From assembly GCA_965200245.1 (NCBI GenBank), contig CBDATS010000004.1, positions 320,001 to 384,000 on the forward strand: a stretch of DNA of 64,000 bases, written 5' to 3'. The notes beneath the pieces are model-generated. The model had not been told where the DNA came from, searched no databases, and saw nothing but the letters and a program-made list of their open reading frames with translations. Origin of the DNA: a bacterium. Its GTDB lineage: Bacteria; UBA8248. The position numbers and the translations under genes were made by a program. This document shows positions 8,140 to 26,735 of this stretch, piece after piece; position 1 is the stretch's first letter, and each line of letters starts with the position of its first letter.

Positions 8140-10200
8140 ATGACGCCCACGCGGGAAATCTACTGGAACATAGTCCTGGGACCCCTGATCTACCTGTTCG
8201 CCGCAGCGGCCATCGGCGTGATGTCCTACGGCATATACCAGCGTGTGCGTCTCTGGAGGTTGGGCGGAGGAGAGATCAGGACCGACAATCCAGCAAAACG
8301 CCTCTGGGGCGTAGTGGACGAGTTGCTTTTCCACCGCCGGATGCTGCGGGACACCTACCCTGGCCTCATGCACTTGTTCATCTTCTACGGCTTTTTCGTC
8401 GAACTCGTCGCCACGTCGATGATTGCCGTTCAGGAATGGACGGGAATCCATTACCTGAAGGGAAACCTCTACCTGGGCTATTCGCTGCTGAGCGACGGCT
8501 TTGGACTCTTGGGGATCGTCGGCATACTCATGGCCCTTTGGCGGCGTCTGGTGATGAAGCCCGAACGAATGAACTCGGTGCTCGACGACTATCTCGCGCT
8601 GTGGCTGCTGCTGCTCGTCTTCGTCCAGGGTTTTGTCGTAGAGGGGCTGCGCATCGCTGCGACGGAACTACGGGACAATCCGTCTCTCGCCCCATGGTCA
8701 CCTGGCGGCTATGCAGTCGCCCTCACCCTTCAGGGTTTGAGCGTCGAGACGCTTAAATTCCTGCACCGCATCAACTGGTGGTTCCACTCCATCACGGCGT
8801 TCGTACTGCTTGGCTACATGGGTTTCGGGAAGTTCAATCACATCTGGTACGGCCTGTTGAACATGTTCTGCAGAAACCTGAACCCCAGCGGCAAGCTGAG
8901 CTTCATCGACATCGAGGCAACGATGGAAGCGGACCCCGAGGCCATAGAAACCCTGGGCGTGGAAAAAATCGAGGGCTACACCTGGAAAAACCTGCTCGAT
9001 CTGGACGCCTGCACGAATTGCGGCCGCTGCCAGGATGTCTGCCCCGCCTACATGAGCGGCGTGCCGCTCAGTCCCAAAAAACTGATCCAGGACATGAAGG
9101 CACACCTGAGCGAGGTGGGTCCGGCAACACTTGAGGAAAACGGTGAAGCTGGTGAGCGATCACCCCTGTTCGGTGAGCCCGGGGACGAATCCGCCGTACT
9201 TGAGGAAGAACTCTGGGGCTGCCGCACCTGCGGGGCCTGCCAGCAGGAGTGCCCTGTGTTCATCGAGCACATCCCTAAGATGGTGGATATGCGTCGCTAC
9301 CTCGTGATGATGGAATCCAAAACGAGCGAGGACGCGCGCCAGTTCCTGAAGTCCATGGACGAGCGGCTCCACCCCTGGGTGGGCGCACAGCACAATCGGG
9401 AGGAATGGTACGAGGGTCTGGACGTGAAAGTCCTCTCGAGCGGAGAGAAAGCAGAATACCTCTACTGGGTGGGCTGCACGGGCTCGATGATCGACCGAAA
9501 CATCGAGGTGTCGCGGGCGATGGTGAAGATTCTCGCCGCTGCGGGGGTGGACTTCGCCATCCTGGGTGCGGAGGAGGTCTGCACGGGCGATCCGGCCCGG
9601 CGGGTCGGGGGCGAATTTACCTTCCAAATGTGCGCGAAGCAGAACATCGAGACCCTGAACAGCTATGAGGTGGAAAAAATCATTACCACCTGCCCCCATT
9701 GCTTCAACACGTACAAGAACGAATACCCCGACTTCGGGGGAAACTACGAGGTGGTGCACCATACGCAACTCATCGCGGAACTCATCAAATCCGGAAAACT
9801 CAAGCTCAAGAAATCGCTCGGATCCCTCACCTACCACGACCCGTGCTACCTGGGCCGCCACAACGGCGTATACGATGCGCCGCGCGAGGTTCTTCACCAG
9901 ATTTCGGACGGCGGCTTCACCGAACTGGCACGCAATCGTTCGCGCTCGCTGTGCTGCGGCGCAGGTGGCGGCTACGCCTGGATGGACGATGAACCCCAAA
10001 AGCGCATCAACCACGAACGTCTCGAGGACGTGAAGGCCTGCGGGGCCAAAACAGCCGCCGTCTCCTGCCCTTTCTGTATGCAGATGTTCGATGACGCATT
10101 GAAAGCGATCGACCCCGAGAAGACCATCCGCGCCGCCGACATCGCCGAACTCGTCGCCGAAGCGATAGAAGAACAGACACCGGAAAGCTCCTTTCCCTGA
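8140..10200 (+). CDS. membrane-bound Fe-S oxidoreductase (HdrD/FadF-like, CCG domains)
   Basis: N-terminal TM region; two CxxCxxCxxxCP motifs; TTCPHC, YHDPCYLGR and CCGAGGG. Confidence 0.92.
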   Translation: MTPTREIYWNIVLGPLIYLFAAAAIGVMSYGIYQRVRLWRLGGGEIRTDNPAKRLWGVVDELLFHRRMLRDTYPGLMHLFIFYGFFVELVATSMIAVQEWTGIHYLKGNLYLGYSLLSDGFGLLGIVGILMALWRRLVMKPERMNSVLDDYLALWLLLLVFVQGFVVEGLRIAATELRDNPSLAPWSPGGYAVALTLQGLSVETLKFLHRINWWFHSITAFVLLGYMGFGKFNHIWYGLLNMFCRNLNPSGKLSFIDIEATMEADPEAIETLGVEKIEGYTWKNLLDLDACTNCGRCQDVCPAYMSGVPLSPKKLIQDMKAHLSEVGPATLEENGEAGERSPLFGEPGDESAVLEEELWGCRTCGACQQECPVFIEHIPKMVDMRRYLVMMESKTSEDARQFLKSMDERLHPWVGAQHNREEWYEGLDVKVLSSGEKAEYLYWVGCTGSMIDRNIEVSRAMVKILAAAGVDFAILGAEEVCTGDPARRVGGEFTFQMCAKQNIETLNSYEVEKIITTCPHCFNTYKNEYPDFGGNYEVVHHTQLIAELIKSGKLKLKKSLGSLTYHDPCYLGRHNGVYDAPREVLHQISDGGFTELARNRSRSLCCGAGGGYAWMDDEPQKRINHERLEDVKACGAKTAAVSCPFCMQMFDDALKAIDPEKTIRAADIAELVAEAIEEQTPESSFP

Positions 10201-13265: not shown

Positions 13266-14507
13266 TCAGGCGATAACGACGTGTTCGCGGTGTGGCTCTC
13301 CCAAGTGCGTCATCCCCGTATCGGTCACCAAGACCGTATATTCCGCGTGCACGCCGCCTTTCCCGAATTTGCCCGAGGGCAGTTCCACAGAGAGCACTGC
13401 TCCTGCGGGAAGCGGGATGTCCGAATCCGGCGGCAGAAAGGGGTCGACCAGCTTCACGGGTTCGCTCAAAGTACAAGGCAACTCGCGTGCCTCAATGCCT
13501 ATTGTGTGTCCGCAGAATGCGCCGTTGTAACGAGGCAGGCCTGATTTTTTCGCCGCCGCCACCGCCGCACGAAAAATCTCAGAAGGCTTAACACCAGCAC
13601 GGATAACGCCGAAAGCGGCCTCCAGTCCCGCCTGAATGGCATTCCACTGCGCCTTGCGCTCTGCGTTCGGATCACCGAACGAGCCGCAACAACCCACATC
13701 CGCACAGTAGTGGTTCAGCCGCATACCGGCGTCAAAGAAAAAACCGTCTCCAGACTCGAATTTTCGCTCAGATGGCGGAAAGATTGACGCCGAGCGCCTC
13801 CCGCCTCCCAGATGAAACCAACTCCATTTTCCGCCTCCCGCAGCCACGGTACGGTAGTAATGACTCGCCACCTCGCACTCGCTGAGTCCAACGGCCATCT
13901 CCTGGTGGAACGCGACTACGGCCCGTTCGTTCAAAAGTGCCGCGGTGCGCATGCGATCAATTTCTTCTTCGGTTTTTTGGAGGCGAATCAGTCGAAACAG
14001 ATTCGAGGCGTTCAAAAAAACCACGCCCGGCAAAGCCGCCTCGAGTGCACCATGCGTGCCAGGCCGAATTCCCTCGTTGTCGAGCGCCACTTTTCCGCTA
14101 GAAAGGCCCCGTTCCCGCAAAATTCTCAGCAGGGCATCCGCTGAATTTGCCTCACGCGGAGCGTCTTCGGCGATGAGAGATATGTAATTTCTCTCCTCTT
14201 CGGTGGCTCCCGCCTCATCGGACGCCATATCGAGCGCCGAGCGGGGACCATAGCCCCTCACATCCTGAATCCACGAACCCGTCGCCGCATAGTAAGTCTC
14301 ATCCTGACGGGAGAGTACCAGCGCGGGCGGGGAGGATTCGTCCCGAAAAAACAGGACGAAAGTCTCTGTCGTGGCGTCTCCATAGGTATATTGCGCCCAG
14401 CCCTGAAAACCTGAGAGATACAGGACATTGTGGCGTGTGGCCGCTATGAGCGCATCAAGATCGAACCTCTCCATATATTCGAGTGCACGTCCTTTGTGGA
14501 AAAGCAT
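13266..14507 (-). CDS. M24 (Xaa-Pro peptidase/creatinase-fold) family protein
   Basis: Creatinase-N-like N-terminus; KTEEEI; metal-ligand positions in DAG..Y.AD, GHTIG, VELP and AEYTV. Confidence 0.88.
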   Translation of the reverse strand: MLFHKGRALEYMERFDLDALIAATRHNVLYLSGFQGWAQYTYGDATTETFVLFFRDESSPPALVLSRQDETYYAATGSWIQDVRGYGPRSALDMASDEAGATEEERNYISLIAEDAPREANSADALLRILRERGLSSGKVALDNEGIRPGTHGALEAALPGVVFLNASNLFRLIRLQKTEEEIDRMRTAALLNERAVVAFHQEMAVGLSECEVASHYYRTVAAGGGKWSWFHLGGGRRSASIFPPSERKFESGDGFFFDAGMRLNHYCADVGCCGSFGDPNAERKAQWNAIQAGLEAAFGVIRAGVKPSEIFRAAVAAAKKSGLPRYNGAFCGHTIGIEARELPCTLSEPVKLVDPFLPPDSDIPLPAGAVLSVELPSGKFGKGGVHAEYTVLVTDTGMTHLGEPHREHVVIA

Positions 14508-14546: not shown

Positions 14547-17500
14547 TCAGGCTCGCCTGAAGTCTCTGATTTGCCGTACGAGCGGAATAGTGCCGCAAAC
14601 TAAACCCGTTGCAAGCATAGCAACGCTGAAGAAAATAACAAACAGAATGAATGTGACGAAGCAGACAAACAAGAGGAATCGTTCGTATGTATAGAGTCTT
14701 TCCAAAAGCCAGCCCTGGGTTCCCGCCGAGAAAGCGATGAATCCCAGAAGCGTAATGGATGCGGAAAGTACAACGCGCAACGGACTCGCGAAAGTAAGCA
14801 GCGCCGGGTCGAACATAAACAAAAAAGGAACGATAAAGCCCACGATAGCGAAGCGCAGGGACATCATGGATGTCTTGAAATAAGGGGCTCCCGCCAGCTT
14901 GGCACCCACGAGCGAAGCTATTGCCACGGGCGGCGTAATGGCGGAGAGAATCGCAAAATAGAAGATGAACATATGGGCTGCTACCCGGTCACCCTTGGAG
15001 GCCACGAACTCCTTGACCCATTCCGCACCATAGATATGTGTGAGTTCCGGCCCAACGAGCTTGATAAGCACGGGCCCACCCAGAATAGCAAGCAACACAT
15101 AGGCAGCCGTAGTCGGCATTCCCATGCCCAAAATCGCACAGCAAACCGCAGTGAGCAGAAGCGCAACGAAAAAACCATCGAGACCAATATAATATGCGCA
15201 GCCGCCACCCGCAGCGACGCCGAACAGACATATATCCTGGGCAAGGGCCTCGATCATGAAGGCGAACTTGTTGCCCACGCCCGTGATGGTCAGAACCTGC
15301 ACAACGACCTCGATGGTGGCCAGGGTTACGGCGAACTCGGCCCCCTGCCTGCCACCTACCCGCAAGGCATCACGGATACTGAAAATCCATGTGGATGCGC
15401 CTTGCGCGGCCTGTACGTCTGGACCCGTCTCGCCCGTATTTTTCGCTCGCTGCAAGTAGGTAAACGGATTGCACGACACGGCCAACACCTGCTTCACGCT
15501 TGGCACAGGTTCATCAGCCTCGGGTTGTTGCGAACCGAACGAAAATATTACCCTTTGGACAATGAAGGCCAACCCAAAAAAGATAAGGCCGTCATAGATA
15601 AATCCGAATGGAACGAACCATTCGCCGAAGTCCGCTATGGCGGGGACAAGCGTATAAATCCCTTTTTGCGCATAATAGGCTCCCACCCAAATGATGGCGA
15701 AATACCAGGGTATCGTCGTGGAGGGTTGCACACCATTTCCCCGGAAAATGGACAGTGCACAAAGCAGAATCAGTACAATTGCGAGCCCGGCAACACCTGG
15801 AGTCCAGCCCAAAACACCCCAAAAACCCACAAAGGTAAGTGGATAAATTGCAAGCCAATTCCGCTCGATCTCACGCCAGAATTCAGCCACCCAGGAGAGC
15901 AGGCGAGCGGAAACACTCACCAGAACGAAACCTGTAACGATCATGGACAGGGCGGCCGTAATTGCTGCACTCCAGGTCGGCTTCCCATATATCCCCAATG
16001 GCAACCCGAAACCCAACTCAAAAACCGAGAGAAATGCAAATACGAAGAAGACGAATACCCAAAAAGTGACCGGCACAAAAACGAATACATCATCCGCGAT
16101 GGTCTTATCACCCCGCCTCAGCGTACCCAGAAATTCCGTCACATTCCGGTAAAACCAAATGCCCACCATGATGAATACCGACATGACACCCGCAAACACG
16201 GGCGTTCTGCCCTCAAAGAGGAAATAGACCAAAAACGCCAGAGGCACGAGATAGAACCACCCGTTCTTGAGTTCCTCTTTCCAACTCGGAATCTCGGAAG
16301 CGGGCAATGGCTGTATATTCAGCGCCCCGGCTGCAAAGTGGATGTTGATCCCCACGATGGTGAAATACAAGACCGCAGGTATGGTGGCATATCCGATGAT
16401 ATGGAAATATGGCACCTCGATGAGTTCGCTCATGATAAAGGCGCCAGCCCCCATGACAGGCGGCATAATCTGTCCACCGCTGCTAGCCGCCGCCTCTGCC
16501 GCTCCGGCAATGTGCGGGCTGAGCCCGATACGCTTCATCAAGGGAATTGTGAACGTACCGGTGGTAACGACGTTCCCGGATGCGCTCCCAGACACCGTAC
16601 CCATGAGCGCGCTCGAACCAACTGCAGCGAGACCAGCACCCGCGCGCATCTTGCCGAACAGGCCTAAAGCGAAATTCACAAAAAAACGGCCTGCACCCGA
16701 TTCGTGTAAAAATGCTCCCAGAATAAGAAACATGATGATAAACGTGGCCGAGATAACAACCAGAAAGCCCAATACGCCACCGATAAAATCCGTTGACAGT
16801 TTGGCCTGAAGCTCAATCCATGTGTGACCACCATGACCAAAAGGAGGAGCGAAAAGATTGCCCCAGATGCCATAAGCGAAGGCAATCACCGCCAAAGTCG
16901 GAAGTGGAGGACCGAAACAACGTCTCGTCAACTCAAGGGCGACAACGAGCATGACGAAACCGACACGCGCATCTCCAATTGTCGGGGCGCCCGGTCGATC
17001 GACCATCTCCTCGTGGTAGTAGAATAAGTACAGACAAGCCGTTGCTACGAAAAAAAGCATGCCTGCGTTCAAGCCAATCGTGAAACCAGCCGGAAAAGGA
17101 TGCGCGGGATATTCTTCGAATACTTCCTTGATGCGTCTTTTGGCCCAGAAAAGAGGAAATGCGAAGACAACTACCGGCCAGAGGTAGAAAGCGCTTCTCA
17201 CCTCATCACTTTGCCCGGCCCACAACCCTACTCGCCACCCAATCAGAATGAGCGCTACGAAAAACACCCCCAGAAAAACACCCGCTTTTTTCACCCCCTC
17301 GGCGGGCCTGAAAAAGATCGCGAACAAGGTCCACATCACGGGAATTGCGGAGCACGTGATCAACAACCACCAGAATGTGGGCTCATGCGTGCTTTCAGGT
17401 AAGGAATCCCAATACCAGTACAGTATGGGCGCAGGAACGAACCCCAAAACCCACAGCAAAAGCGCGAGCCATGATTTTTCAACGACCATCATGGCTATCC

Positions 17501-17861
17501 ATATGACGAACGGGAGCGCATATACCCACCAAACACTCCAATCAGACCAGCCTTCTCCCATTTCATAAACAAAGTAGTAGAAAATGACGGCGGGAAACAA
17601 AGACAAGACATACAAGACCGGGAGAAGTTTCAGTTTTCGGATCCTGTCGCCATATATCCGCGGCATCGCGCCGGCACCGCCGATGAGAAGAATGCTGTAG
17701 GCCAACAACATGTGCATGTTGGGGTGCATCTCGCCTGGCAAAGGCCGCAGGTAGACCGCGGAGATATGATAGAGCCCCGAAAGCACGCATAGCCAGGAAG
17801 TGATGAAAACCAGAGCTCTTACGAGAGGAGCTGACTGGGTCGGATCAGATTCGGCGTTCAT
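14547..17861 (-). CDS. TRAP fused permease (4TM/12TM, TAXI-type), enlarged to 1104 aa
   Basis: ELTRR, GTVSGSASGNVVTTGTFTIPLMK, GGQIMPPVMGAGAFIM, LGMGMPTTAAY and AHMFIFYFAILSAITPPVA. Confidence 0.92.
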   Translation of the reverse strand: MNAESDPTQSAPLVRALVFITSWLCVLSGLYHISAVYLRPLPGEMHPNMHMLLAYSILLIGGAGAMPRIYGDRIRKLKLLPVLYVLSLFPAVIFYYFVYEMGEGWSDWSVWWVYALPFVIWIAMMVVEKSWLALLLWVLGFVPAPILYWYWDSLPESTHEPTFWWLLITCSAIPVMWTLFAIFFRPAEGVKKAGVFLGVFFVALILIGWRVGLWAGQSDEVRSAFYLWPVVVFAFPLFWAKRRIKEVFEEYPAHPFPAGFTIGLNAGMLFFVATACLYLFYYHEEMVDRPGAPTIGDARVGFVMLVVALELTRRCFGPPLPTLAVIAFAYGIWGNLFAPPFGHGGHTWIELQAKLSTDFIGGVLGFLVVISATFIIMFLILGAFLHESGAGRFFVNFALGLFGKMRAGAGLAAVGSSALMGTVSGSASGNVVTTGTFTIPLMKRIGLSPHIAGAAEAAASSGGQIMPPVMGAGAFIMSELIEVPYFHIIGYATIPAVLYFTIVGINIHFAAGALNIQPLPASEIPSWKEELKNGWFYLVPLAFLVYFLFEGRTPVFAGVMSVFIMVGIWFYRNVTEFLGTLRRGDKTIADDVFVFVPVTFWVFVFFVFAFLSVFELGFGLPLGIYGKPTWSAAITAALSMIVTGFVLVSVSARLLSWVAEFWREIERNWLAIYPLTFVGFWGVLGWTPGVAGLAIVLILLCALSIFRGNGVQPSTTIPWYFAIIWVGAYYAQKGIYTLVPAIADFGEWFVPFGFIYDGLIFFGLAFIVQRVIFSFGSQQPEADEPVPSVKQVLAVSCNPFTYLQRAKNTGETGPDVQAAQGASTWIFSIRDALRVGGRQGAEFAVTLATIEVVVQVLTITGVGNKFAFMIEALAQDICLFGVAAGGGCAYYIGLDGFFVALLLTAVCCAILGMGMPTTAAYVLLAILGGPVLIKLVGPELTHIYGAEWVKEFVASKGDRVAAHMFIFYFAILSAITPPVAIASLVGAKLAGAPYFKTSMMSLRFAIVGFIVPFLFMFDPALLTFASPLRVVLSASITLLGFIAFSAGTQGWLLERLYTYERFLLFVCFVTFILFVIFFSVAMLATGLVCGTIPLVRQIRDFRRA

Positions 17862-18160
17862 GTTTCCCCTTCTTTCTCCACCGAGGTGGATTCATCATGG
17901 CAATTCGCAAACTACCTGTTGATTCAATCCACGTCATTCTAGCGGATAGGCTTGCTGTTTTTCCAGCGACTCACAAGATTCGCCCAAATGCCTTCCGAAC
18001 TTTGTACCTGACAACTTCACCTGGCACTTGACCAAACCGCATGGTTTTGTTTAAGTATTCGCACCTCGATAAACCTTCAGGATATGAGATTTTATTCATG
18101 AGTCTCGGATTTACAACTCGAAACGATCAAGTAATTTTCACTACCCAAAAGGAGATGCGA

Positions 18161-19132
18161 ATGAGGGAATCCACACTTCGGTTGATCACGTTGGCGGCAG
18201 GTCTTGCCTTGGTTATCGGCACGGCTCCGACGGCACACGCAGCCAAAATACTCATGGGAACGTCCCAGCCCGGTGGCGCCACTTTCGAGATTGGCACCGC
18301 AATGGGCAAAGTGATCACGGACAATTCGGGCGGAAAGATTCAAGTGGAAACATCCGTAACCGGCGGTTCCACGGCAAATGTCCGGACACTTCAGAAGAAG
18401 GACAAGAACCAGGCCCTGCGCATAGGCATGGCCACGGCGCCGGCTGTCTCGTGGGGCCAAACAGGCAGGAAACCCTTCAAGAAACCTCAGGATGTACTGG
18501 CACTCGGAGCCCTTTATCCATTGACAACCGTCTACACCACATTCAAGACCACCGGAATCAAGAAATGGGCCGATCTCAAGGGCAAAAGATTCGTTGTCGG
18601 CGGTCGCGGGGGCTCGATTTACATCGTCACGCAGCTTGCCCTCAAACACAGCGGCGTAAAAGCGAAAAAAGAATTCTTCAACAACAACCAGAACTCAGCC
18701 GCCATCAAAGACCAAAGGGTGGACGCCGGATTCTTCTTCCTGAACGCGAACGTTCCCGCACCCGTGTATATGGACCTCGCTCGCACGCTCTCCGGCAAAC
18801 TTCACTTCTTCGGCCCAGATGAAGCCACTATCAAAAAGCTTGCCGAGAACGAAGCGGGCATCGTGCGCGATGTCGTGTCTGCCGGCTCCATCCCTGGTTA
18901 CGACAAGGATGTCGTAAGCTGGGGACAGATGTGGACTCTGATGACCAACAGCAAAATGAGCAATGCCAACGCATACGGGCTCGTCAAGGCTCTGTACGAC
19001 AACCACAAACAAATCACCAAATATCATCCGACCGGAAAATACGTCACGAAAAAGACAGGCCTTCGTGGCATTAAGAAACTCAAGATGCACCCGGGAGCGG
19101 CCCGCTACTGGAAAGAGTCGGGCATGAACTAA
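18161..19132 (+). CDS. TAXI-family TRAP substrate-binding protein
   Basis: Signal peptide; GTSQPGG, TGGSTAN, DLKGKR and MHPGAARY; AAGGAG RBS. Confidence 0.92.
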   Translation: MRESTLRLITLAAGLALVIGTAPTAHAAKILMGTSQPGGATFEIGTAMGKVITDNSGGKIQVETSVTGGSTANVRTLQKKDKNQALRIGMATAPAVSWGQTGRKPFKKPQDVLALGALYPLTTVYTTFKTTGIKKWADLKGKRFVVGGRGGSIYIVTQLALKHSGVKAKKEFFNNNQNSAAIKDQRVDAGFFFLNANVPAPVYMDLARTLSGKLHFFGPDEATIKKLAENEAGIVRDVVSAGSIPGYDKDVVSWGQMWTLMTNSKMSNANAYGLVKALYDNHKQITKYHPTGKYVTKKTGLRGIKKLKMHPGAARYWKESGMN

Positions 19133-19146
19133 GCATCATCGACAAT

Positions 19147-19179
19147 GAAAAACTCCTGCTTCGGCGGGGGTTTTTTATT
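19147..19179 (+). terminator. intrinsic terminator
   Basis: AAAACTCCTGC-TTCG-GCGGGGGTTTTTT. Confidence 0.8.
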
Positions 19180-19267
19180 GTCTCGTGATACTCGCCAAGG
19201 ACTATGGAAATGGTATGATGGCCGAACATTACCCAGAACCAGACCTTTCCATTCCCGGGAGAAGAAA

Positions 19268-19876
19268 ATGGACGCATCCGGTTTTGAAACCGTTCGTCTG
19301 GTCAAACCCGACGAGGCCGAAGATGAAGTTCTGCAGATATACGATGAAATATGTCGATTAAAGGACCCGCGCTGGCTGGGACCGTTATTTGGGTTTTTCG
19401 CACACGTGCCGGGTCTGTTGAGGGGATTTTGGGAACTGCAAAAACGCCTCGAAGTGCTGGATGGCCATATTTCACGTGAGTTGACCAATCGCATCGCCAT
19501 GGTTTGCGCGGTTGCCTCAGACTGCCCCCGCTGCGTGAATTTCCACAAAACAGATCTAATCCACCGCCTGGAACTCGATGAATATGAAGTCGAAAAACTT
19601 CATGACTTCGAGAACGCCGATTTGCCCGAAGCGGAAAAGGCGGTTTTCCGTGTTGCCAGAAAACTCACACTCAACGAACAGATGAGCGACAGTGAGTTTC
19701 AGGCGTTGCGCGAGCACGGCTTTGATGAACCCGCTATCGTGGAGATTGTCTCCGTTGCCTTGCTGGAGAGCGGCTTCGCTCGTCACGCAAGCGTACTCGC
19801 GCGATTTGAAGACGGAATGGACTGGCCTGCGCAACATACCCCATACGCCGAATATCGAAGCGCCATCGACCGCTAA
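19268..19876 (+). CDS. AhpD/carboxymuconolactone decarboxylase-like protein
   Basis: CPRCVNFH (CxxCxxxH) and LREHGFDEPAIVEIV. Confidence 0.82.
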   Translation: MDASGFETVRLVKPDEAEDEVLQIYDEICRLKDPRWLGPLFGFFAHVPGLLRGFWELQKRLEVLDGHISRELTNRIAMVCAVASDCPRCVNFHKTDLIHRLELDEYEVEKLHDFENADLPEAEKAVFRVARKLTLNEQMSDSEFQALREHGFDEPAIVEIVSVALLESGFARHASVLARFEDGMDWPAQHTPYAEYRSAIDR

Positions 19877-20215: not shown

Positions 20216-20416
20216 GCCTGGGAATCATAACACAATACCGGGAAATGATAATGCCACCTATTTCCCGATGGTTTTCGTATTGAAAAACAATTTCAACTCT
20301 TATATGGTTACCTGAAATTCAAAGACTGGAATTTTACGGATATGGTGGATGATTCAGGGCGTTCATTCGCCGATTTATCTTCAAGCTACACAACCATATT
20401 TTGGAAATGACCTCTC

Positions 20417-22375
20417 GTGCCAGAACCCAAACACCTGCTCAGAATGTCGAAAATCGACAAATCCTTCCCCGGCGTTCATGCCCTCAAGGAAGTAGATTTC
20501 GATCTCGCCGAAGGCGAAATCCACATCCTCCTGGGTGAAAACGGGGCCGGAAAATCCACACTCATCAAAATCTTGGCAGGAATGTATCAGACAGATTCCG
20601 GTCAAATCGAGATTCGCGAAGCACCCACCGTTATCCCCGATGCCAGAACAGGTCGAGACCTGGGAATAAGCGTGATCTATCAGGAACTGAACCTGGTACC
20701 CGATCTGAGCGTGGCAAAAAACATCTTTCTCGGGCGTGAACCTGTCTTGCCCGGCATCATGAAGCGTGTAGATTGGGCCAAAGTCGAGCAAGAATCCCGT
20801 GCGATCATGGAACGTTTGGGCGTAAAAATCGACGTCACCGCGCCGGTCCGATCACTAAGCGTCGCGGATCAGCAAATGGTGGAGATCGCTCGCGCTCTTG
20901 CGTTCGACTGCAATATCCTGGTCATGGATGAACCCACGTCCTCCTTGAGTGGGCATGAAATCGAGGAACTCTTCAAGGCGGTCAATCGGTTGCGTGAACA
21001 TGGTGTCGGCATAATCTATATCTCCCACCGACTTGAAGAAGTTCACAAAATTGGAAACCGCGTCACCGTCCTGCGCGACGGGCAATATATGGGCACATGG
21101 GAAGTCAAAGAGGTGGAACTCGATTTCCTGATTACGCAGATGGTGGGACGCACACTTGACGATAAATTCCCGTGGACGCCCCGCGAGCGGGGTGAAGTGG
21201 CACTGCGCGTGCGTGGTCTCACCCGAAACGGCATATTCGAAGATATCAACTTTGACCTTCACTATGGTGAAATCGTCGGTCTTTCGGGTCTCGTAGGCGC
21301 GGGAAGAACCGAGGTGGCACGCGCCGTTATGGGCGCGGACACTGTCGATAGCGGCACTGTTGAAATGACCAGAGCGACAAAAGAAAAACAGGAGATACAG
21401 AAACTCCCCCACTACCCGCTCTGGTTGGCGCTCGTGGACGTTTTCGTTTTCATGCTGGCCTTGCCCCTGTTCACCGTTATATTCCAGGTAATTTACGATC
21501 CTTTCACGCTCAACATGAATTCACCACCACCCCTGTTCAGTGGAAACTGGTTTTACGAATGGATTCTTGGCGGACCTTTGTACAACATACCGAATGGTCC
21601 CACACCCTATATTGTCGCCACCGGTCTGGCCGTCGTCCGGCAGGCCGGAATCTGGTTTCTCGAGCGGCAATACAGCTGGCGCACTCTGGCTATCGACTTT
21701 GCGAGTTGGTACGCCCTGGCGGTATGCACGATGGTCATTACAAGTTTGTTCACCCAGAATTTCGTTCTTGAATGGATCATGATCTGGGGCGGCGTCGCTA
21801 TGCTCATTATCCGGTTCTTGACGATCCTCACTCATGAACGCAAGTGGAATCCGACACTGGCCATACGACGAGGGCTCGGACTGTTGCCCGAGGACAGGAA
21901 GACCCAGGGTCTCACCCAGGTCCTTTCCGTTGCATTCAACACTACCAGCGCGAATCTCCGCCGCCTCATCAAGCGGTGGCTGCTGAATCTGAGCGTCGAA
22001 AAAAACCTCGTGGATGAACACATCCATCAACTGAAGATCATGACACCTGATCAGGAGACACAAGTCCGCTTCCTGTCAGGCGGTAACCAGCAGAAGGTCG
22101 TTCTGGCCAAATGGCTCTTCAGACGTGCCAACGTGCTCATCTTTGATGAACCGACCCGTGGAATCGACGTAGGCGCCAAATTCGAAGTCCACTCACAGAT
22201 GTTGCAATTGGCCAAAGATGGTGCCGCGGTAATGATGATTTCCAGTGAACTCCCTGAAATTCTTGGAATGAGCGATCGAATTCTGGTGATGCGTGAAGGT
22301 CGGCTCACCGCAGATATCGACAGAAGCGAAGCAACGCAGGAAGGAATCTTGCGCTACGCCATGACGGCGGAATGA
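20417..22375 (+). CDS. sugar ABC ATPase (RbsA/MglA, tandem NBD) with internal hydrophobic insertion
   Basis: GENGAGKST, MDEPT, ISH; GLVGAGRTE, PEDRK, LSGGNQQK, DEPTRGIDVGAK; 652 aa. Confidence 0.93.
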   Translation: MPEPKHLLRMSKIDKSFPGVHALKEVDFDLAEGEIHILLGENGAGKSTLIKILAGMYQTDSGQIEIREAPTVIPDARTGRDLGISVIYQELNLVPDLSVAKNIFLGREPVLPGIMKRVDWAKVEQESRAIMERLGVKIDVTAPVRSLSVADQQMVEIARALAFDCNILVMDEPTSSLSGHEIEELFKAVNRLREHGVGIIYISHRLEEVHKIGNRVTVLRDGQYMGTWEVKEVELDFLITQMVGRTLDDKFPWTPRERGEVALRVRGLTRNGIFEDINFDLHYGEIVGLSGLVGAGRTEVARAVMGADTVDSGTVEMTRATKEKQEIQKLPHYPLWLALVDVFVFMLALPLFTVIFQVIYDPFTLNMNSPPPLFSGNWFYEWILGGPLYNIPNGPTPYIVATGLAVVRQAGIWFLERQYSWRTLAIDFASWYALAVCTMVITSLFTQNFVLEWIMIWGGVAMLIIRFLTILTHERKWNPTLAIRRGLGLLPEDRKTQGLTQVLSVAFNTTSANLRRLIKRWLLNLSVEKNLVDEHIHQLKIMTPDQETQVRFLSGGNQQKVVLAKWLFRRANVLIFDEPTRGIDVGAKFEVHSQMLQLAKDGAAVMMISSELPEILGMSDRILVMREGRLTADIDRSEATQEGILRYAMTAE

Positions 22376-22398
22376 GCTGCTTTTGGAGGTAGATTCAA

Positions 22399-23411
22399 TG
22401 AGCGCAGCAGCCTCTATGGAAAACGAGAAGTTCATCTTCGGATATCCGGTCAAGGATATTCCATGGGAGCGGATACTCCTGATATCCGCTTTCCTGGTCT
22501 TGATGATCTTCTACACCTTTGCGACCGAGAACTTCCTGACCCTCGAAAACTTCGTGAATGTCGTGCGGCGCGACGCATGGCTCTTTTTTTTGGCCTATGC
22601 GCAGACACTGGTCATCGTTTCGGCAGGATTCGACCTTTCACAAGGCTCCATCATGAGCGTGGTAAGCGTGATGGCCTGGAGCGCGATGTTGCATTTCGGG
22701 TTTTTCGTCGGCCTCATCGCAGGCCTCGGTATCGGTCTGCTGTGTGGCACCATCAATGGTTTTTTCGTCGGCGTAGTCAGGGTGCAACCTTTCATCGCGA
22801 CATTGGGGATGCTCTTTATCGGCAGCGGCACGGCCCAGCTTTGGACCGGCGGCCTTCAAATGGGAGGCGCGCGCGAAGGCGCAACACTTCCGAAACACGT
22901 GGAAGAGGCGTATGTCTTTCTCGCGAAAGGAAATCTCGGTCCCATCCCCTTCACATTCATCTGGATAATCATCGCGCTGGCTACGATGTGGTATCTGCTC
23001 AAATACACCCGATTTGGCACGTACGTGTACGCCCTGGGCGGAAACGAGCAAACGGCGATTTCCGCGGGCATCAACTATGCCGGCATGAAAATCGCCATTT
23101 TCGGCATAGGTGGCCTTTTGTGCGGTTTCGCAGGGCTTCTTCTTTCAGCGAACGTCAGCGCAGCGGGAGAACCAAGGCTGGGCGGCGGCGATCAATTGCT
23201 CCAGTCGATCGGAGCAACCATAATCGGCGGCACGCATATTTTCGGCGGGCGAGGCGGCGTACTGGGTACGACGCTGGGTGTCTTCCTGATCATTTTCCTG
23301 GTGAATGGACTAAACATCATGGGAATCGACACCTACCGGCAACAAATCATCGTCGGTTTGGTGATTCTCGCCTCCATCTGGGTCAGCACCCTGCGTGAAC
23401 ACAAAAACTAG
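22399..23411 (+). CDS. sugar ABC permease (RbsC-like)
   Basis: GFDLSQGS, PFIATLG, YALGGNE and IGGT..GGRG. Confidence 0.9.
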
Positions 23412-23426
23412 GGGAGATTCAATATA

Positions 23427-24422
23427 ATGGCGAAAGCAGCGGAGGCTCCGGCCAGACCTCCTGCCTCCATCTTGGCCAGTTTCGATTACGACAAATATGG
23501 TTTGCTCGTCGTATTCATCCTCATGATGATCATATTTTACATTCTTCAGTTGATGGGCTACGTGAACAACTTCATTGAAGCCCATAACCTGACCAACCAA
23601 CTCAGAAACGCTTCCTTGCTGTTCTTTATCGTGGCCGGCCAAAGCATGGTACTCCTGGTATCGGGTATCGATTTGAGCCAGGGTTCTCTGCTAAGCCTAT
23701 CGAGCGTCGTGATGGCGCAGGGCATTCTGGACTTCGGTCTCGCCGTGGGCGTGCTGATGGGTATCGGGATGGCAACGATGTTCGGTTTCATCAACGGCTA
23801 CCTCGTAGGCCGCGTGAAGATACAGCCTTTCATCGTCACCTTGAGCATGCTCTTCATCTGCGCCGGTATTGCCCTTGTGTTCACGGGCGGACGCACGATC
23901 CATCAGTTCACGGGCGAGCAAAAAGACATCCTTCAGGCCATCGGCCTCACGGATTTCTTTCATATCCCCGGCACGCTGTTCATTGCGATTGCCTTTTTCA
24001 TCATTCTCTACCTGCTGACGAAACGTACGGTGCTGGGAAGGGCGATCTACTTGACCGGCGGGAACGAAGAGGCCGCCCGCCTCTCCGGCATCGACACCGG
24101 CAAGGTAAAACTCATTTGTTACTTGATCAGCGGCATCTGCGTGGGCATCACCTCCTTCCTCTATTTGGCAAGGCTTCCGGCCACGAACGGCCTCGCAGGA
24201 TTCCAGCTCGAATTCCAGTCCCTGGCGGCCACCGTCGTGGGGGGCACGACCTTCCACGGTGGTGAGGGCGGCGTGGTGCAGGCCGCTATCGGGACGTTGT
24301 TCCTGACATTTTTGCTCAATGGTCTTATTCTCCTGGGCGTAGGTACATTCGCTCGGGAGGTGGTGGTTGGCGTTTTGCTTATTACGGCCGTGGTATTGAG
24401 TTCCCGCAAGCGGCGCGAATAG
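23427..24422 (+). CDS. sugar ABC permease (RbsC-like)
   Basis: GIDLSQGS, GGNEEAARLSGI and VVGGT..GGEG. Confidence 0.9.
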   Translation: MAKAAEAPARPPASILASFDYDKYGLLVVFILMMIIFYILQLMGYVNNFIEAHNLTNQLRNASLLFFIVAGQSMVLLVSGIDLSQGSLLSLSSVVMAQGILDFGLAVGVLMGIGMATMFGFINGYLVGRVKIQPFIVTLSMLFICAGIALVFTGGRTIHQFTGEQKDILQAIGLTDFFHIPGTLFIAIAFFIILYLLTKRTVLGRAIYLTGGNEEAARLSGIDTGKVKLICYLISGICVGITSFLYLARLPATNGLAGFQLEFQSLAATVVGGTTFHGGEGGVVQAAIGTLFLTFLLNGLILLGVGTFAREVVVGVLLITAVVLSSRKRRE

Positions 24423-25641: not shown

Positions 25642-26735
25642 CTACAACCCGTTCACGTATAAACTGAGTCCCATCCGCCCGGTCGACCCGCCGGGTTTGG
25701 GGTCGGAAATCCCGTCCGTCTGTACCTGTCCCATACCATCTACGGCCCGTACTGTCGCCGGATAAAATCCGTCTTCATCAAAACGCATGGGAAAGGCCCA
25801 AATAGTCCATGAGAGAGGCCCCAAGGGCTTTTTGAGAAAAGCCGGCGACCAGGACCGCAAACGCTCGCCTTGTCCGTAGGTAACTTCCACCTTGCGAATT
25901 CCCCGCGCTCCCGCAAATGCCGAACCCACAAGCCAGACTTTCGCTGTCCGTACATTGACGCGTCTTCTGGGAGCTTCGAAACGACTAAGCGTCTCGACAA
26001 TCGCCTCATCCGACCAACCGCGTCTTTGCCAATAGCCGCCATGCCCCCCGGTCGATATTTCGATGGATTCGATCCATTTTACGTTCTTCAGACCATACGT
26101 TCCCGGCACGAGGAGCCTCAAGGGGCGCCATGATCCCGTGGAAGATGATTCCCGTTCATTCTGGTGCACAGAAGCGTTCTCGGATACAGGGCCTGCTCCA
26201 TGGATATGGAGTCATGATACCCGTCCGCCGCACGAAAAATGACCCTGGCGGATACGGACCGGCGAACGCTCTCCGCTATGCCCGCCTGTTCGATAAGGTT
26301 TTTGAGCGGTATCCCCTGCCATAACGCGTTTCCTATCTGTCCCCCGCCCACGGGATTTCCGATACAGGTCATGGTCGCCCAGGTTTTCTCTTGTCTGAAC
26401 ACGCCCAATTCCGAAAAGGTAGCGGAAAAAGGCTGTTTTATCTCACCCTTGATGTTCAACCGCCATTTCCTGCGGGAGAGTCCTGGCGATGAATGGCCGA
26501 TGCTTTGCACGTAGAACGCATCGTTCGCCGTGACTTCGGGAACGACGCGCGCGGCGAACGCGAGAATATCCTCACCGGCTCTGGGCATCTCGACGGGGCG
26601 GCTGTTCAACCAGTCGAACAGGCGGCCCGTCATAGAGGCCTGCGCGTCGGGCGGAATCCCGAGCACGGCCAGGGGAGCAACTCTCCCCGCCACCCGCAAC
26701 ACATGGCGTCTGGATACGTTCATGATGATCCTCAC
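25642..26735 (-). pseudogene. Tat-exported sulfite-oxidase-family molybdoenzyme, frameshifted near 26120-26127
   Basis: SRRHVL Tat-like motif, TMTCIGN and MNG..LPRDHGAP, continued in another frame by LRLLVPGTYGLKNVKW; one C missing in a C run. Confidence 0.82.

Follow-up and report, generated by a model that had tools for sequence, protein, structure and literature searches.

A CUT2-type importer ATPase from Nitrospinota with four predicted membrane helices nested in its second nucleotide-binding domain

The window analysed here, a stretch of 64,000 nucleotides (positions 320,001 to 384,000) of contig CBDATS010000004.1 from a bacterium of the phylum Nitrospinota, harbours a four-gene operon for an ATP-binding cassette (ABC) importer. 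The first gene encodes an ATPase with two nucleotide-binding domains (NBD1 and NBD2), the second of which is interrupted by an in-frame insert predicted to form four transmembrane (TM) helices. The initial annotation of this DNA had located the insert at 21365..21850 within an open reading frame (ORF) of 652 amino acids (aa) and had recognized two permease genes downstream; both statements were borne out, with the insert corresponding to codons 317-478 and both permeases being assigned to BPD_transp_2 by Pfam. Coordinates refer to the window, and the operon comprises:

20417..22375, forward strand: double-NBD ABC ATPase gene (CUT2, RbsA/AraG type), ORF of 652 codons, bearing the insert
22398..23411, forward strand: permease 1, RbsC-like, BPD_transp_2 (Pfam E 7.8e-26), 337 aa, start codon ATG at 22398
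23427..24422, forward strand: permease 2, RbsC-like, BPD_transp_2 (Pfam E 8.9e-32), 331 aa
24428..25570, forward strand: periplasmic binding protein, Peripla_BP_4 (Pfam E 8.5e-40)

By its domain content, motifs and operon partners, the ATPase is of the CUT2 type. It is matched by Pfam ABC_tran (E 3.5e-48) in three stretches, since the insert splits NBD2, and its top NCBIfam models are AraG (550.6 bits), RbsA (511.3 bits) and XylG (507.4 bits). All CUT2 equivalog models align in two stretches, those of the three top models ending near residue 307-327. The scores stay below the NCBIfam whole-protein cut-offs for AraG (689) and RbsA (745) as well as for the other named equivalogs (XylG, GguA, MglA, YtfR, AlsA, LsrA); therefore, no substrate can be assigned. 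One trait of CUT2 ATPases, i.e., a soluble peripheral subunit of ~500 aa, is not displayed by the present protein of 652 aa with its predicted four-helix insert of ~160 aa.

In case of the binding protein, which carries a signal-peptide-like segment after M29, the best NCBIfam model is TorT (a TMAO-sensing periplasmic protein; NF008185) with 104.8 bits at a cut-off of 200, while the sugar equivalogs AlsB (76.8 bits) and RhaS (65.2 bits) score lower. Since the binding protein is thus nearer to TorT than to sugar-binding equivalogs, the label "sugar" for this system is uncertain. No sugar-catabolic genes were found within ~10 kb of the operon. For permease 1, an alternative TTG start at 22383 is probably wrong, since 5 of 16 relatives possess a stop codon directly upstream of the conserved MSAA, which points to ATG at 22398 as the start. 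Orthologues of permease 2 are at least 75 % identical, the next relative sharing 43 %. All 22 loci compared preserve the gene order (ATPase, permease 1, permease 2, binding protein); one of these (L057) stops at a contig end inside permease 2, so that its binding-protein gene is unseen. Among closer relatives, the permeases share ~90-96 % identity, above the 84-92 % of the ATPase.

The ATPase chain can be divided into four parts:

20417..21166, forward strand: NBD1 (aa 1-250), consensus-type, with Walker A GENGAGKST, Q89, Walker B D171-E172, H204 and a degenerate signature LSVADQQ
21179..21364, forward strand: N-terminal piece of NBD2 (aa 255-316) with the first strands, Walker A GLVGAGRTE lacking the lysine, its helix and the strand GTVEM
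21365..21850, forward strand: insert (aa 317-478) with a K/R-rich cytoplasmic linker, four predicted TM helices and one long outer loop
21851..22375, forward strand: C-terminal piece of NBD2 (aa 479-652) with LPEDRK at the place of the Q-loop, canonical signature LSGGNQQK, Walker B FDEPTRGID and ISSELPE

The NBD motifs, which had been described as intact on both sides of the insert, are indeed invariant in 20 orthologues: GENGAGKST, DEPT and SH204 in NBD1, and GAGRTE, LPEDRK, LSGGNQQK and FDEPTRGID in NBD2. An H-loop histidine is absent from NBD2, where ISSELPE stands at the corresponding place. With neither this histidine nor the Walker A lysine in NBD2, the insert interrupts the half with the silent nucleotide site. 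The site asymmetry characteristic of CUT2 ATPases is thus present, is also common to eight insert-free relatives, and resembles the asymmetric sites described for the RbsA motifs in passages of PMC11466899.

Alignment of the protein with one insert-bearing orthologue and these eight relatives (~500 aa) revealed ~160 extra residues after DSGTVEM, as had been claimed. The insert-free relatives hold ~10 residues at this site (consensus IFGxxVxxxS), followed by the conserved P...GLGLLPEDRK, and all sequences rejoin at P479. The genome to which the window belongs encodes three further CUT2 ATPases (549, 535 and 545 aa), the alignments of which are confined to residues 1-317 and 478-651. In the AlphaFold model, the N-terminal piece of NBD2 consists of strands 261-270, 274-282, 286-291 and 312-317 and helix 297-305; the Walker A helix and the strand GTVEM immediately precede the insert, which takes the place of the return strand of a β-hairpin. 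The equivalent of the insertion site in NBD1 reads QIEIREAPTVIPDARTG. At the other end, the fourth predicted TM helix (TM4) terminates at ~477 and conserved NBD2 sequence restarts at P479, implying a very short tether between the two.

The insert is not an assembly artefact. A 33.6-kb contig from a run of a second study covers positions 20300-22500 with zero differences, though this contig may be the source DNA itself. In addition, contigs from two RNA libraries cover positions 21287-21460 (crossing the 5' junction), 21462-21729 and 21469-21827; they are counted as junction support and not as proof of transcription, since contigs of RNA libraries can hold DNA. Both junctions being spanned by a contig without differences, the objection of a chimeric assembly, which the initial annotation had itself raised, fails. 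The public runs holding 21100..22100 bear the label sponge metagenome or a coded organism label that other runs bear as well, wherefore the genome may come from a host-associated community.

The search for homologues at the same site, suggested along with the first description, was likewise productive. All 22 proteins returned by a search scored on residues 300-500 carry the insert (61-89 % identity), 19 of them being 643-670 aa long and three being fragments. These fragments (P0004, P0015 and P0023; 391-439 aa) could represent contig ends, frameshifts or truncations. On the genome level, a search of 51 genomes of the phylum detected the 162-residue insert in 27, including that of the window, and in three of 15 genera (21 of 22 genomes in g1, the single genome of g6 and 4 of 5 in g9, but no genome of the remaining twelve). 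These 27 genomes belong to one family, and several are single-contig assemblies. The insert-bearing open frames are free of stop codons and span 654-710 aa in 26 of the 27 cases; that of genome G049 spans 628 aa. For a locus on contig C539 of the latter (L058), the ATPase alignment reaches only residue 532, which a contig end, a frameshift or a truncation could explain. With 0.50-0.57, the GC content of the insert is like that of its flanks. An intein or mobile element was considered and rejected, based on the absence of splicing-type junction residues and on the GC content matching the flanks.

Selection was assessed from the ratio of nonsynonymous to synonymous substitutions (dN/dS; Nei-Gojobori, mean dN over mean dS) in a gap-free codon alignment of 17 orthologous genes. 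Values were 0.062 for NBD1, 0.066 for the NBD2 flanks and 0.124 for the whole insert; within the insert, the predicted outer loop (359-394) is as low as the NBD cores (0.057), and the four predicted helices range from 0.15 to 0.28. With dS near 1 and some pairs saturated, these values are rough, while the ranking of the regions is clear. The insert is under purifying selection. About 70 of its columns are invariant in 15-20 sequences, including the motifs LPHYP, ALP.FT, YDP..LNM, WFYEW, RQ, TQNF and EW as well as the charged residues D341, R408, D427, E452 and R466. That the insert arose by chimeric assembly or by read-through of a frameshift, or that it is a neutral relic of inserted DNA, found no supporting evidence and can accordingly be regarded as refuted: the insert is in-frame in 27 genomes, several of them single-contig, a second contig is identical across both junctions, dN/dS is 0.12 with ~70 invariant columns, and its GC content does not deviate from the flanks.

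With regard to its membrane character, the insert is predicted to comprise the following elements:

21419..21496, forward strand: predicted TM1 (aa 335-360) with invariant D341; supported by hydropathy, insertion score and both AlphaFold models
21497..21601, forward strand: predicted periplasmic loop (aa 361-395; YDP.TLNM..PP.LFS..WFYEW..GGP.YNI.N.P) with a short helix 376-384 and low K+R content
21602..21661, forward strand: predicted TM2 (aa 396-415), marginally hydrophobic, with invariant R408-Q409; helix in both AlphaFold models
21677..21751, forward strand: predicted TM3 (aa 421-445) with invariant D427; supported by hydropathy, insertion score and both AlphaFold models
21767..21847, forward strand: predicted TM4 (aa 451-477) with invariant E452 and R466; supported by hydropathy, insertion score and both AlphaFold models

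About four hydrophobic segments had been noted from the sequence at first sight, and Kyte-Doolittle profiles (19-residue windows) agree with this number, with peaks of 2.55 (337-355), ~1.7 (423-451) and 2.05 (454-472) and a weaker one of 1.27 (397-415), TM2 being the weakest segment. An additive membrane-insertion scale yielded 0.43 for TM1, 1.36 for TM3 and -0.19 for TM4, i.e., within the range of the permeases' own helices (-2.9 to ~6), whereas windows of the soluble NBDs never scored below 9.55. TM2 is also needed for an even number of helices: with the insert sitting in a cytoplasmic domain, an orientation with both N- and C-terminus inside is the only kind of topology possible. Lysine plus arginine residues (K+R), counted per sequence in 20 sequences, average 3.65 for the N-terminal linker, 0.40 for loop 1 (36 residues), 1.25 (plus R408) for loop 2, 0.10 for loop 3 and 1.80 for the C-terminal linker. 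This distribution fits the positive-inside rule and thus speaks for four helices with both ends cytoplasmic.

AlphaFold2 predictions place four helices of 20-27 residues at corresponding positions, both for the whole protein (20-row alignment, mean pLDDT 62.4; helices 335-346/348-360, 376-384, 395-415, 421-445 and 451-475) and for the insert alone (15 rows, mean pLDDT 69.1, pTM 0.58; helices 319-328, 335-360, 376-384, 396-415, 421-445 and 451-477). The predicted periplasmic loop of ~35 residues is rich in aromatic residues and proline. In helices 1 to 4, the invariant D341, R408, D427 and R466, respectively, are ~6-12 residues away from the cytoplasmic end, and one may infer that they constitute a single buried Asp/Arg layer. 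Judged by hydropathy, charge distribution and modelled helices, the insert appears to be transmembrane, as proposed at the outset, with four predicted TM helices, both termini inside and a periplasmic loop; the ATPase is then probably an integral membrane protein.

A soluble or interfacial helical domain packed onto the NBDs would be compatible with the marginal hydrophobicity of TM2, the modest confidence of the AlphaFold models and the fact that many soluble helical bundles reach Z 5-6 in the fold search. Yet three segments score like permease helices while the soluble parts of the protein contain no window with a similar score, the positive-inside pattern recurs in all 20 sequences, and the best, though indecisive, fold match is a four-helix membrane subunit (8b5l_t), rendering such a non-membrane insert very improbable.

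The origin of the insert was addressed by several searches. A HMMER profile built from 15 inserts retrieved from 1.84 billion representative proteins solely the representative of its own cluster. Pfam and NCBIfam named no family for the insert, the Pfam family PDR_CDR being matched weakly in 4 of 15 inserts (best E 0.0018) and dismissed as hydrophobic noise. The ESM Atlas gave no usable match, and Foldseek against the PDB, with the insert-alone model of modest confidence, returned nothing at E ≤ 0.001. The top row of VIA-align was the aforementioned 8b5l_t, a chain of a ribosome-Sec61-TRAP entry (Z 9.5, root mean square deviation 3.0, 114 aligned residues); since helical bundles reach ~13 by chance, this result is read only as looking like a four-helix membrane bundle. 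Derivation from a neighbouring permease was rejected at hhalign probabilities of 0.24 % (permease 2) and 0.26 % (permease 1). Likewise, no paralogue of the insert was found in the window's own genome, where six candidates were scored and the only match was the gene itself. As far as these comparisons reach, the insert is without detectable relative outside its own cluster, and the Pfam, NCBIfam and PDB fold searches gave no convincing match to an already described fused domain; given the modest confidence of the model, the insert may nonetheless have a known fold. A literature search, the coverage of which mostly lacked subscription journals, did not turn up any account of an NBD with nested membrane helices. 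The integral-membrane layout of a CUT2 ATPase would accordingly represent an architecture for which no published description was found. The view of the initial annotation, i.e., a membrane-anchored importer ATPase of undescribed architecture, thus gains support from topology predictions, conservation, selection and the null results of these searches.

In a whole-protein search, 22 insert-bearing proteins share 70 % or more identity with the query, and the next matches are proteins of 498-520 aa at ≤58 % identity. A maximum-likelihood tree was calculated from 90 rows, i.e., 20 insert-bearers and the first 70 of 97 insert-free matches (480-530 aa), with the insert columns removed by occupancy trimming. 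All 20 insert-bearers fall on the same side of a single branch with SH-aLRT support of 100, hence one gain of the insert suffices. The nearest insert-free system resides in a genome of the same family (G012) and has the same gene order, with identities of 58 % and 64 % for the two ATPase parts flanking the site, ~40 % for the permeases and 37 % for the binding protein. The aligned halves of the G012 ATPase abut at the site, leaving space for only few residues. Phylogeny and distribution among the genomes show the insert to have been acquired in the ancestor of three genera of one Nitrospinota family and to have been inherited vertically thereafter.

Compared to 76 distant homologues, permeases 1 and 2 are full-length and display only indels of 4-10 residues; therefore, the insert extends the transporter and is no substitute for missing helices. 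The idea that it compensates for such a loss in the permeases, which had been considered, was rejected on these grounds. A module additive to a complete transporter and limited to one lineage might also be envisaged as a docking site, with the helix bundle recruiting a different membrane protein or coupling the transporter to it and the transporter itself not needing the bundle. A conserved neighbour was, however, not identified beyond the four-gene operon in a comparison made without the wider flanks of the relatives, and positive evidence for a partner is absent, so that a docking site is considered quite unlikely.

On the whole, the nested membrane architecture together with a role as tether or accessory element provides the best explanation of the findings, to which we incline by a slight degree. 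Its functional part, taken by itself, is put forward tentatively: the insert may act as a built-in membrane tether or as an accessory helix bundle beside the permeases. TM4, which enters NBD2 within few residues, would pin the catalytically silent half of the ATPase to the membrane beside the two RbsC-like permeases, and this pinning would keep the ATPase assembled with the permeases through the transport cycle. The constrained outer loop might in turn touch a permease on its periplasmic side, or else the binding protein when docked. Co-folding of the insert with both permeases (ESMFold2, two runs, no controls) scored 0.00 versus a mark of 0.32 and has no bearing on such binding either way.

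Several points weigh against this explanation. TM2 is marginal, scoring 3.3 to 8.3 in 15 orthologues (on the additive scale) and containing an invariant Arg-Gln pair in its sequence. Both AlphaFold models are modest in confidence (pLDDT 62.4 and 69.1) and derive from only 20 and 15 close sequences. Membrane insertion, topology and permease contact are all predictions, and among the solved structures searched there was no CUT2 complex by which the NBD2 hairpin could be oriented relative to the membrane. The insert-free sister systems and the three insert-free paralogues of the same genome work without the module, which is therefore not a general need of the family. Expression cannot be derived from the RNA-library contigs over parts of the gene, which can hold DNA, and a raw-read run yielded only eight mapped reads. 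Finally, a tether alone explains neither the core-like constraint on the outer loop nor the invariant buried charges.

These last two features would be better accounted for by a sensor or gate, in which the bundle reads binding-protein docking, a ligand, the lipid state or the membrane potential and TM4 signals to the degenerate site in NBD2, thereby switching ATP hydrolysis. Pointing in this direction are the outer loop being constrained like the catalytic core (dN/dS 0.057), the four invariant charges inside the predicted helices, the junction of TM4 to NBD2 with almost no linker, and the position of the insert in the half without catalysis, which tolerates regulatory elements (passages of PMC11466899). 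Conversely, no known sensor family or fold was recognized in the insert, the conserved operon shows no obvious signalling partner, and the charges could simply hold the bundle together; positive evidence for sensing or gating is absent. We regard this function as unlikely, albeit consequential: if true, it would represent an ABC importer with its ATPase gated from across the membrane.

Other genes of the window surrounding the operon are described for completeness. Upstream, a TAXI-type TRAP system extends over 14547..19132, consisting of an NMT1_3 binding protein (18041..19132, forward strand) and a fused DctM-type permease of 1104 aa (14547..17861, reverse strand), the first ~300 residues of which form an extra tryptophan-rich hydrophobic region ahead of the DctM match. 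The operon region further neighbours a creatinase/prolidase-type M24 peptidase (13266..14507, reverse strand) and a weakly matching CMD (AhpD-like) protein (19145..19876, forward strand). At 8140..10200 (forward strand), a protein of 686 aa unites a membrane part similar to nitrate reductase gamma with 4Fe-4S ferredoxin motifs and two cysteine-rich CCG domains, a fusion resembling DsrMK/HdrD. Downstream of the operon, a sulfite-oxidase-family gene (Oxidored_molyb; 25642..26735, reverse strand) is split over two overlapping ORFs, with 26118..26735 covering profile positions 8-138 and 25642..26169 covering positions 138-169. The split points to a frameshift, i.e., either a broken gene or a sequencing error.

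ABC transporters are conventionally described as membrane domains combined with soluble peripheral ATPase domains, a rule that would be broken if four membrane helices run through the fold of the ATPase itself. Such a protein raises the questions of how a split NBD folds around a membrane-inserted segment, which job a periplasmic loop fulfils on an ATPase, and whether the silent ATP site of asymmetric transporters serves as landing pad for regulatory modules. The present case is a clean one, with a single origin and with insert-free counterparts for comparison, both in sister systems and among three paralogues of its own genome, and the lineage (Nitrospinota; relatives of marine nitrite oxidisers) is ecologically weighty.

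Additions to ABC proteins are known from other transporters. The regulatory insertion of CFTR NBD1 is an extra segment in the β-subdomain of an NBD whose Walker A serves a degenerate site. It comprises ~30 residues between the first two strands and is disordered, cytoplasmic and phospho-regulated; unlike the insert predicted here, it is not membrane-embedded. In LptB2FGC, LptC contributes an accessory TM helix to a complete ABC transporter and modulates its ATPase. This is comparable to the role proposed here, i.e., an accessory TM element on a complete transporter, but LptC is a separate single-helix protein outside the ATPase chain and belongs to an extractor-type transporter.

The closest counterparts are RbsA, AraG, MglA and XylG (CUT2, TC 3.A.1.2) of E. 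coli and B. subtilis, which likewise contain two ABC domains in one chain. RbsA-type systems likewise encode RbsC-like BPD_transp_2 permeases together with a Peripla_BP_4 binding protein in the operon, and passages of PMC11466899 describe for RbsA-type ATPases the same lysine-less Walker A of NBD2, EDRK at the place of the Q-loop and degenerate signature of NBD1. They differ in being soluble proteins of ~500 aa with ~10 residues at the site, in contrast to the ~160 residues that are predicted here to cross the membrane four times. An NBD covalently joined to a TM helix in one chain, as would be the case here, is described in passages of PMC11466899 for TagH, the ATPase of the teichoic-acid exporter of B. 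subtilis. TagH, which belongs to a type V exporter, carries a single helix that follows the NBD and connects to an extracellular domain, whereas the protein described here is predicted to have four helices nested within the NBD of an importer.

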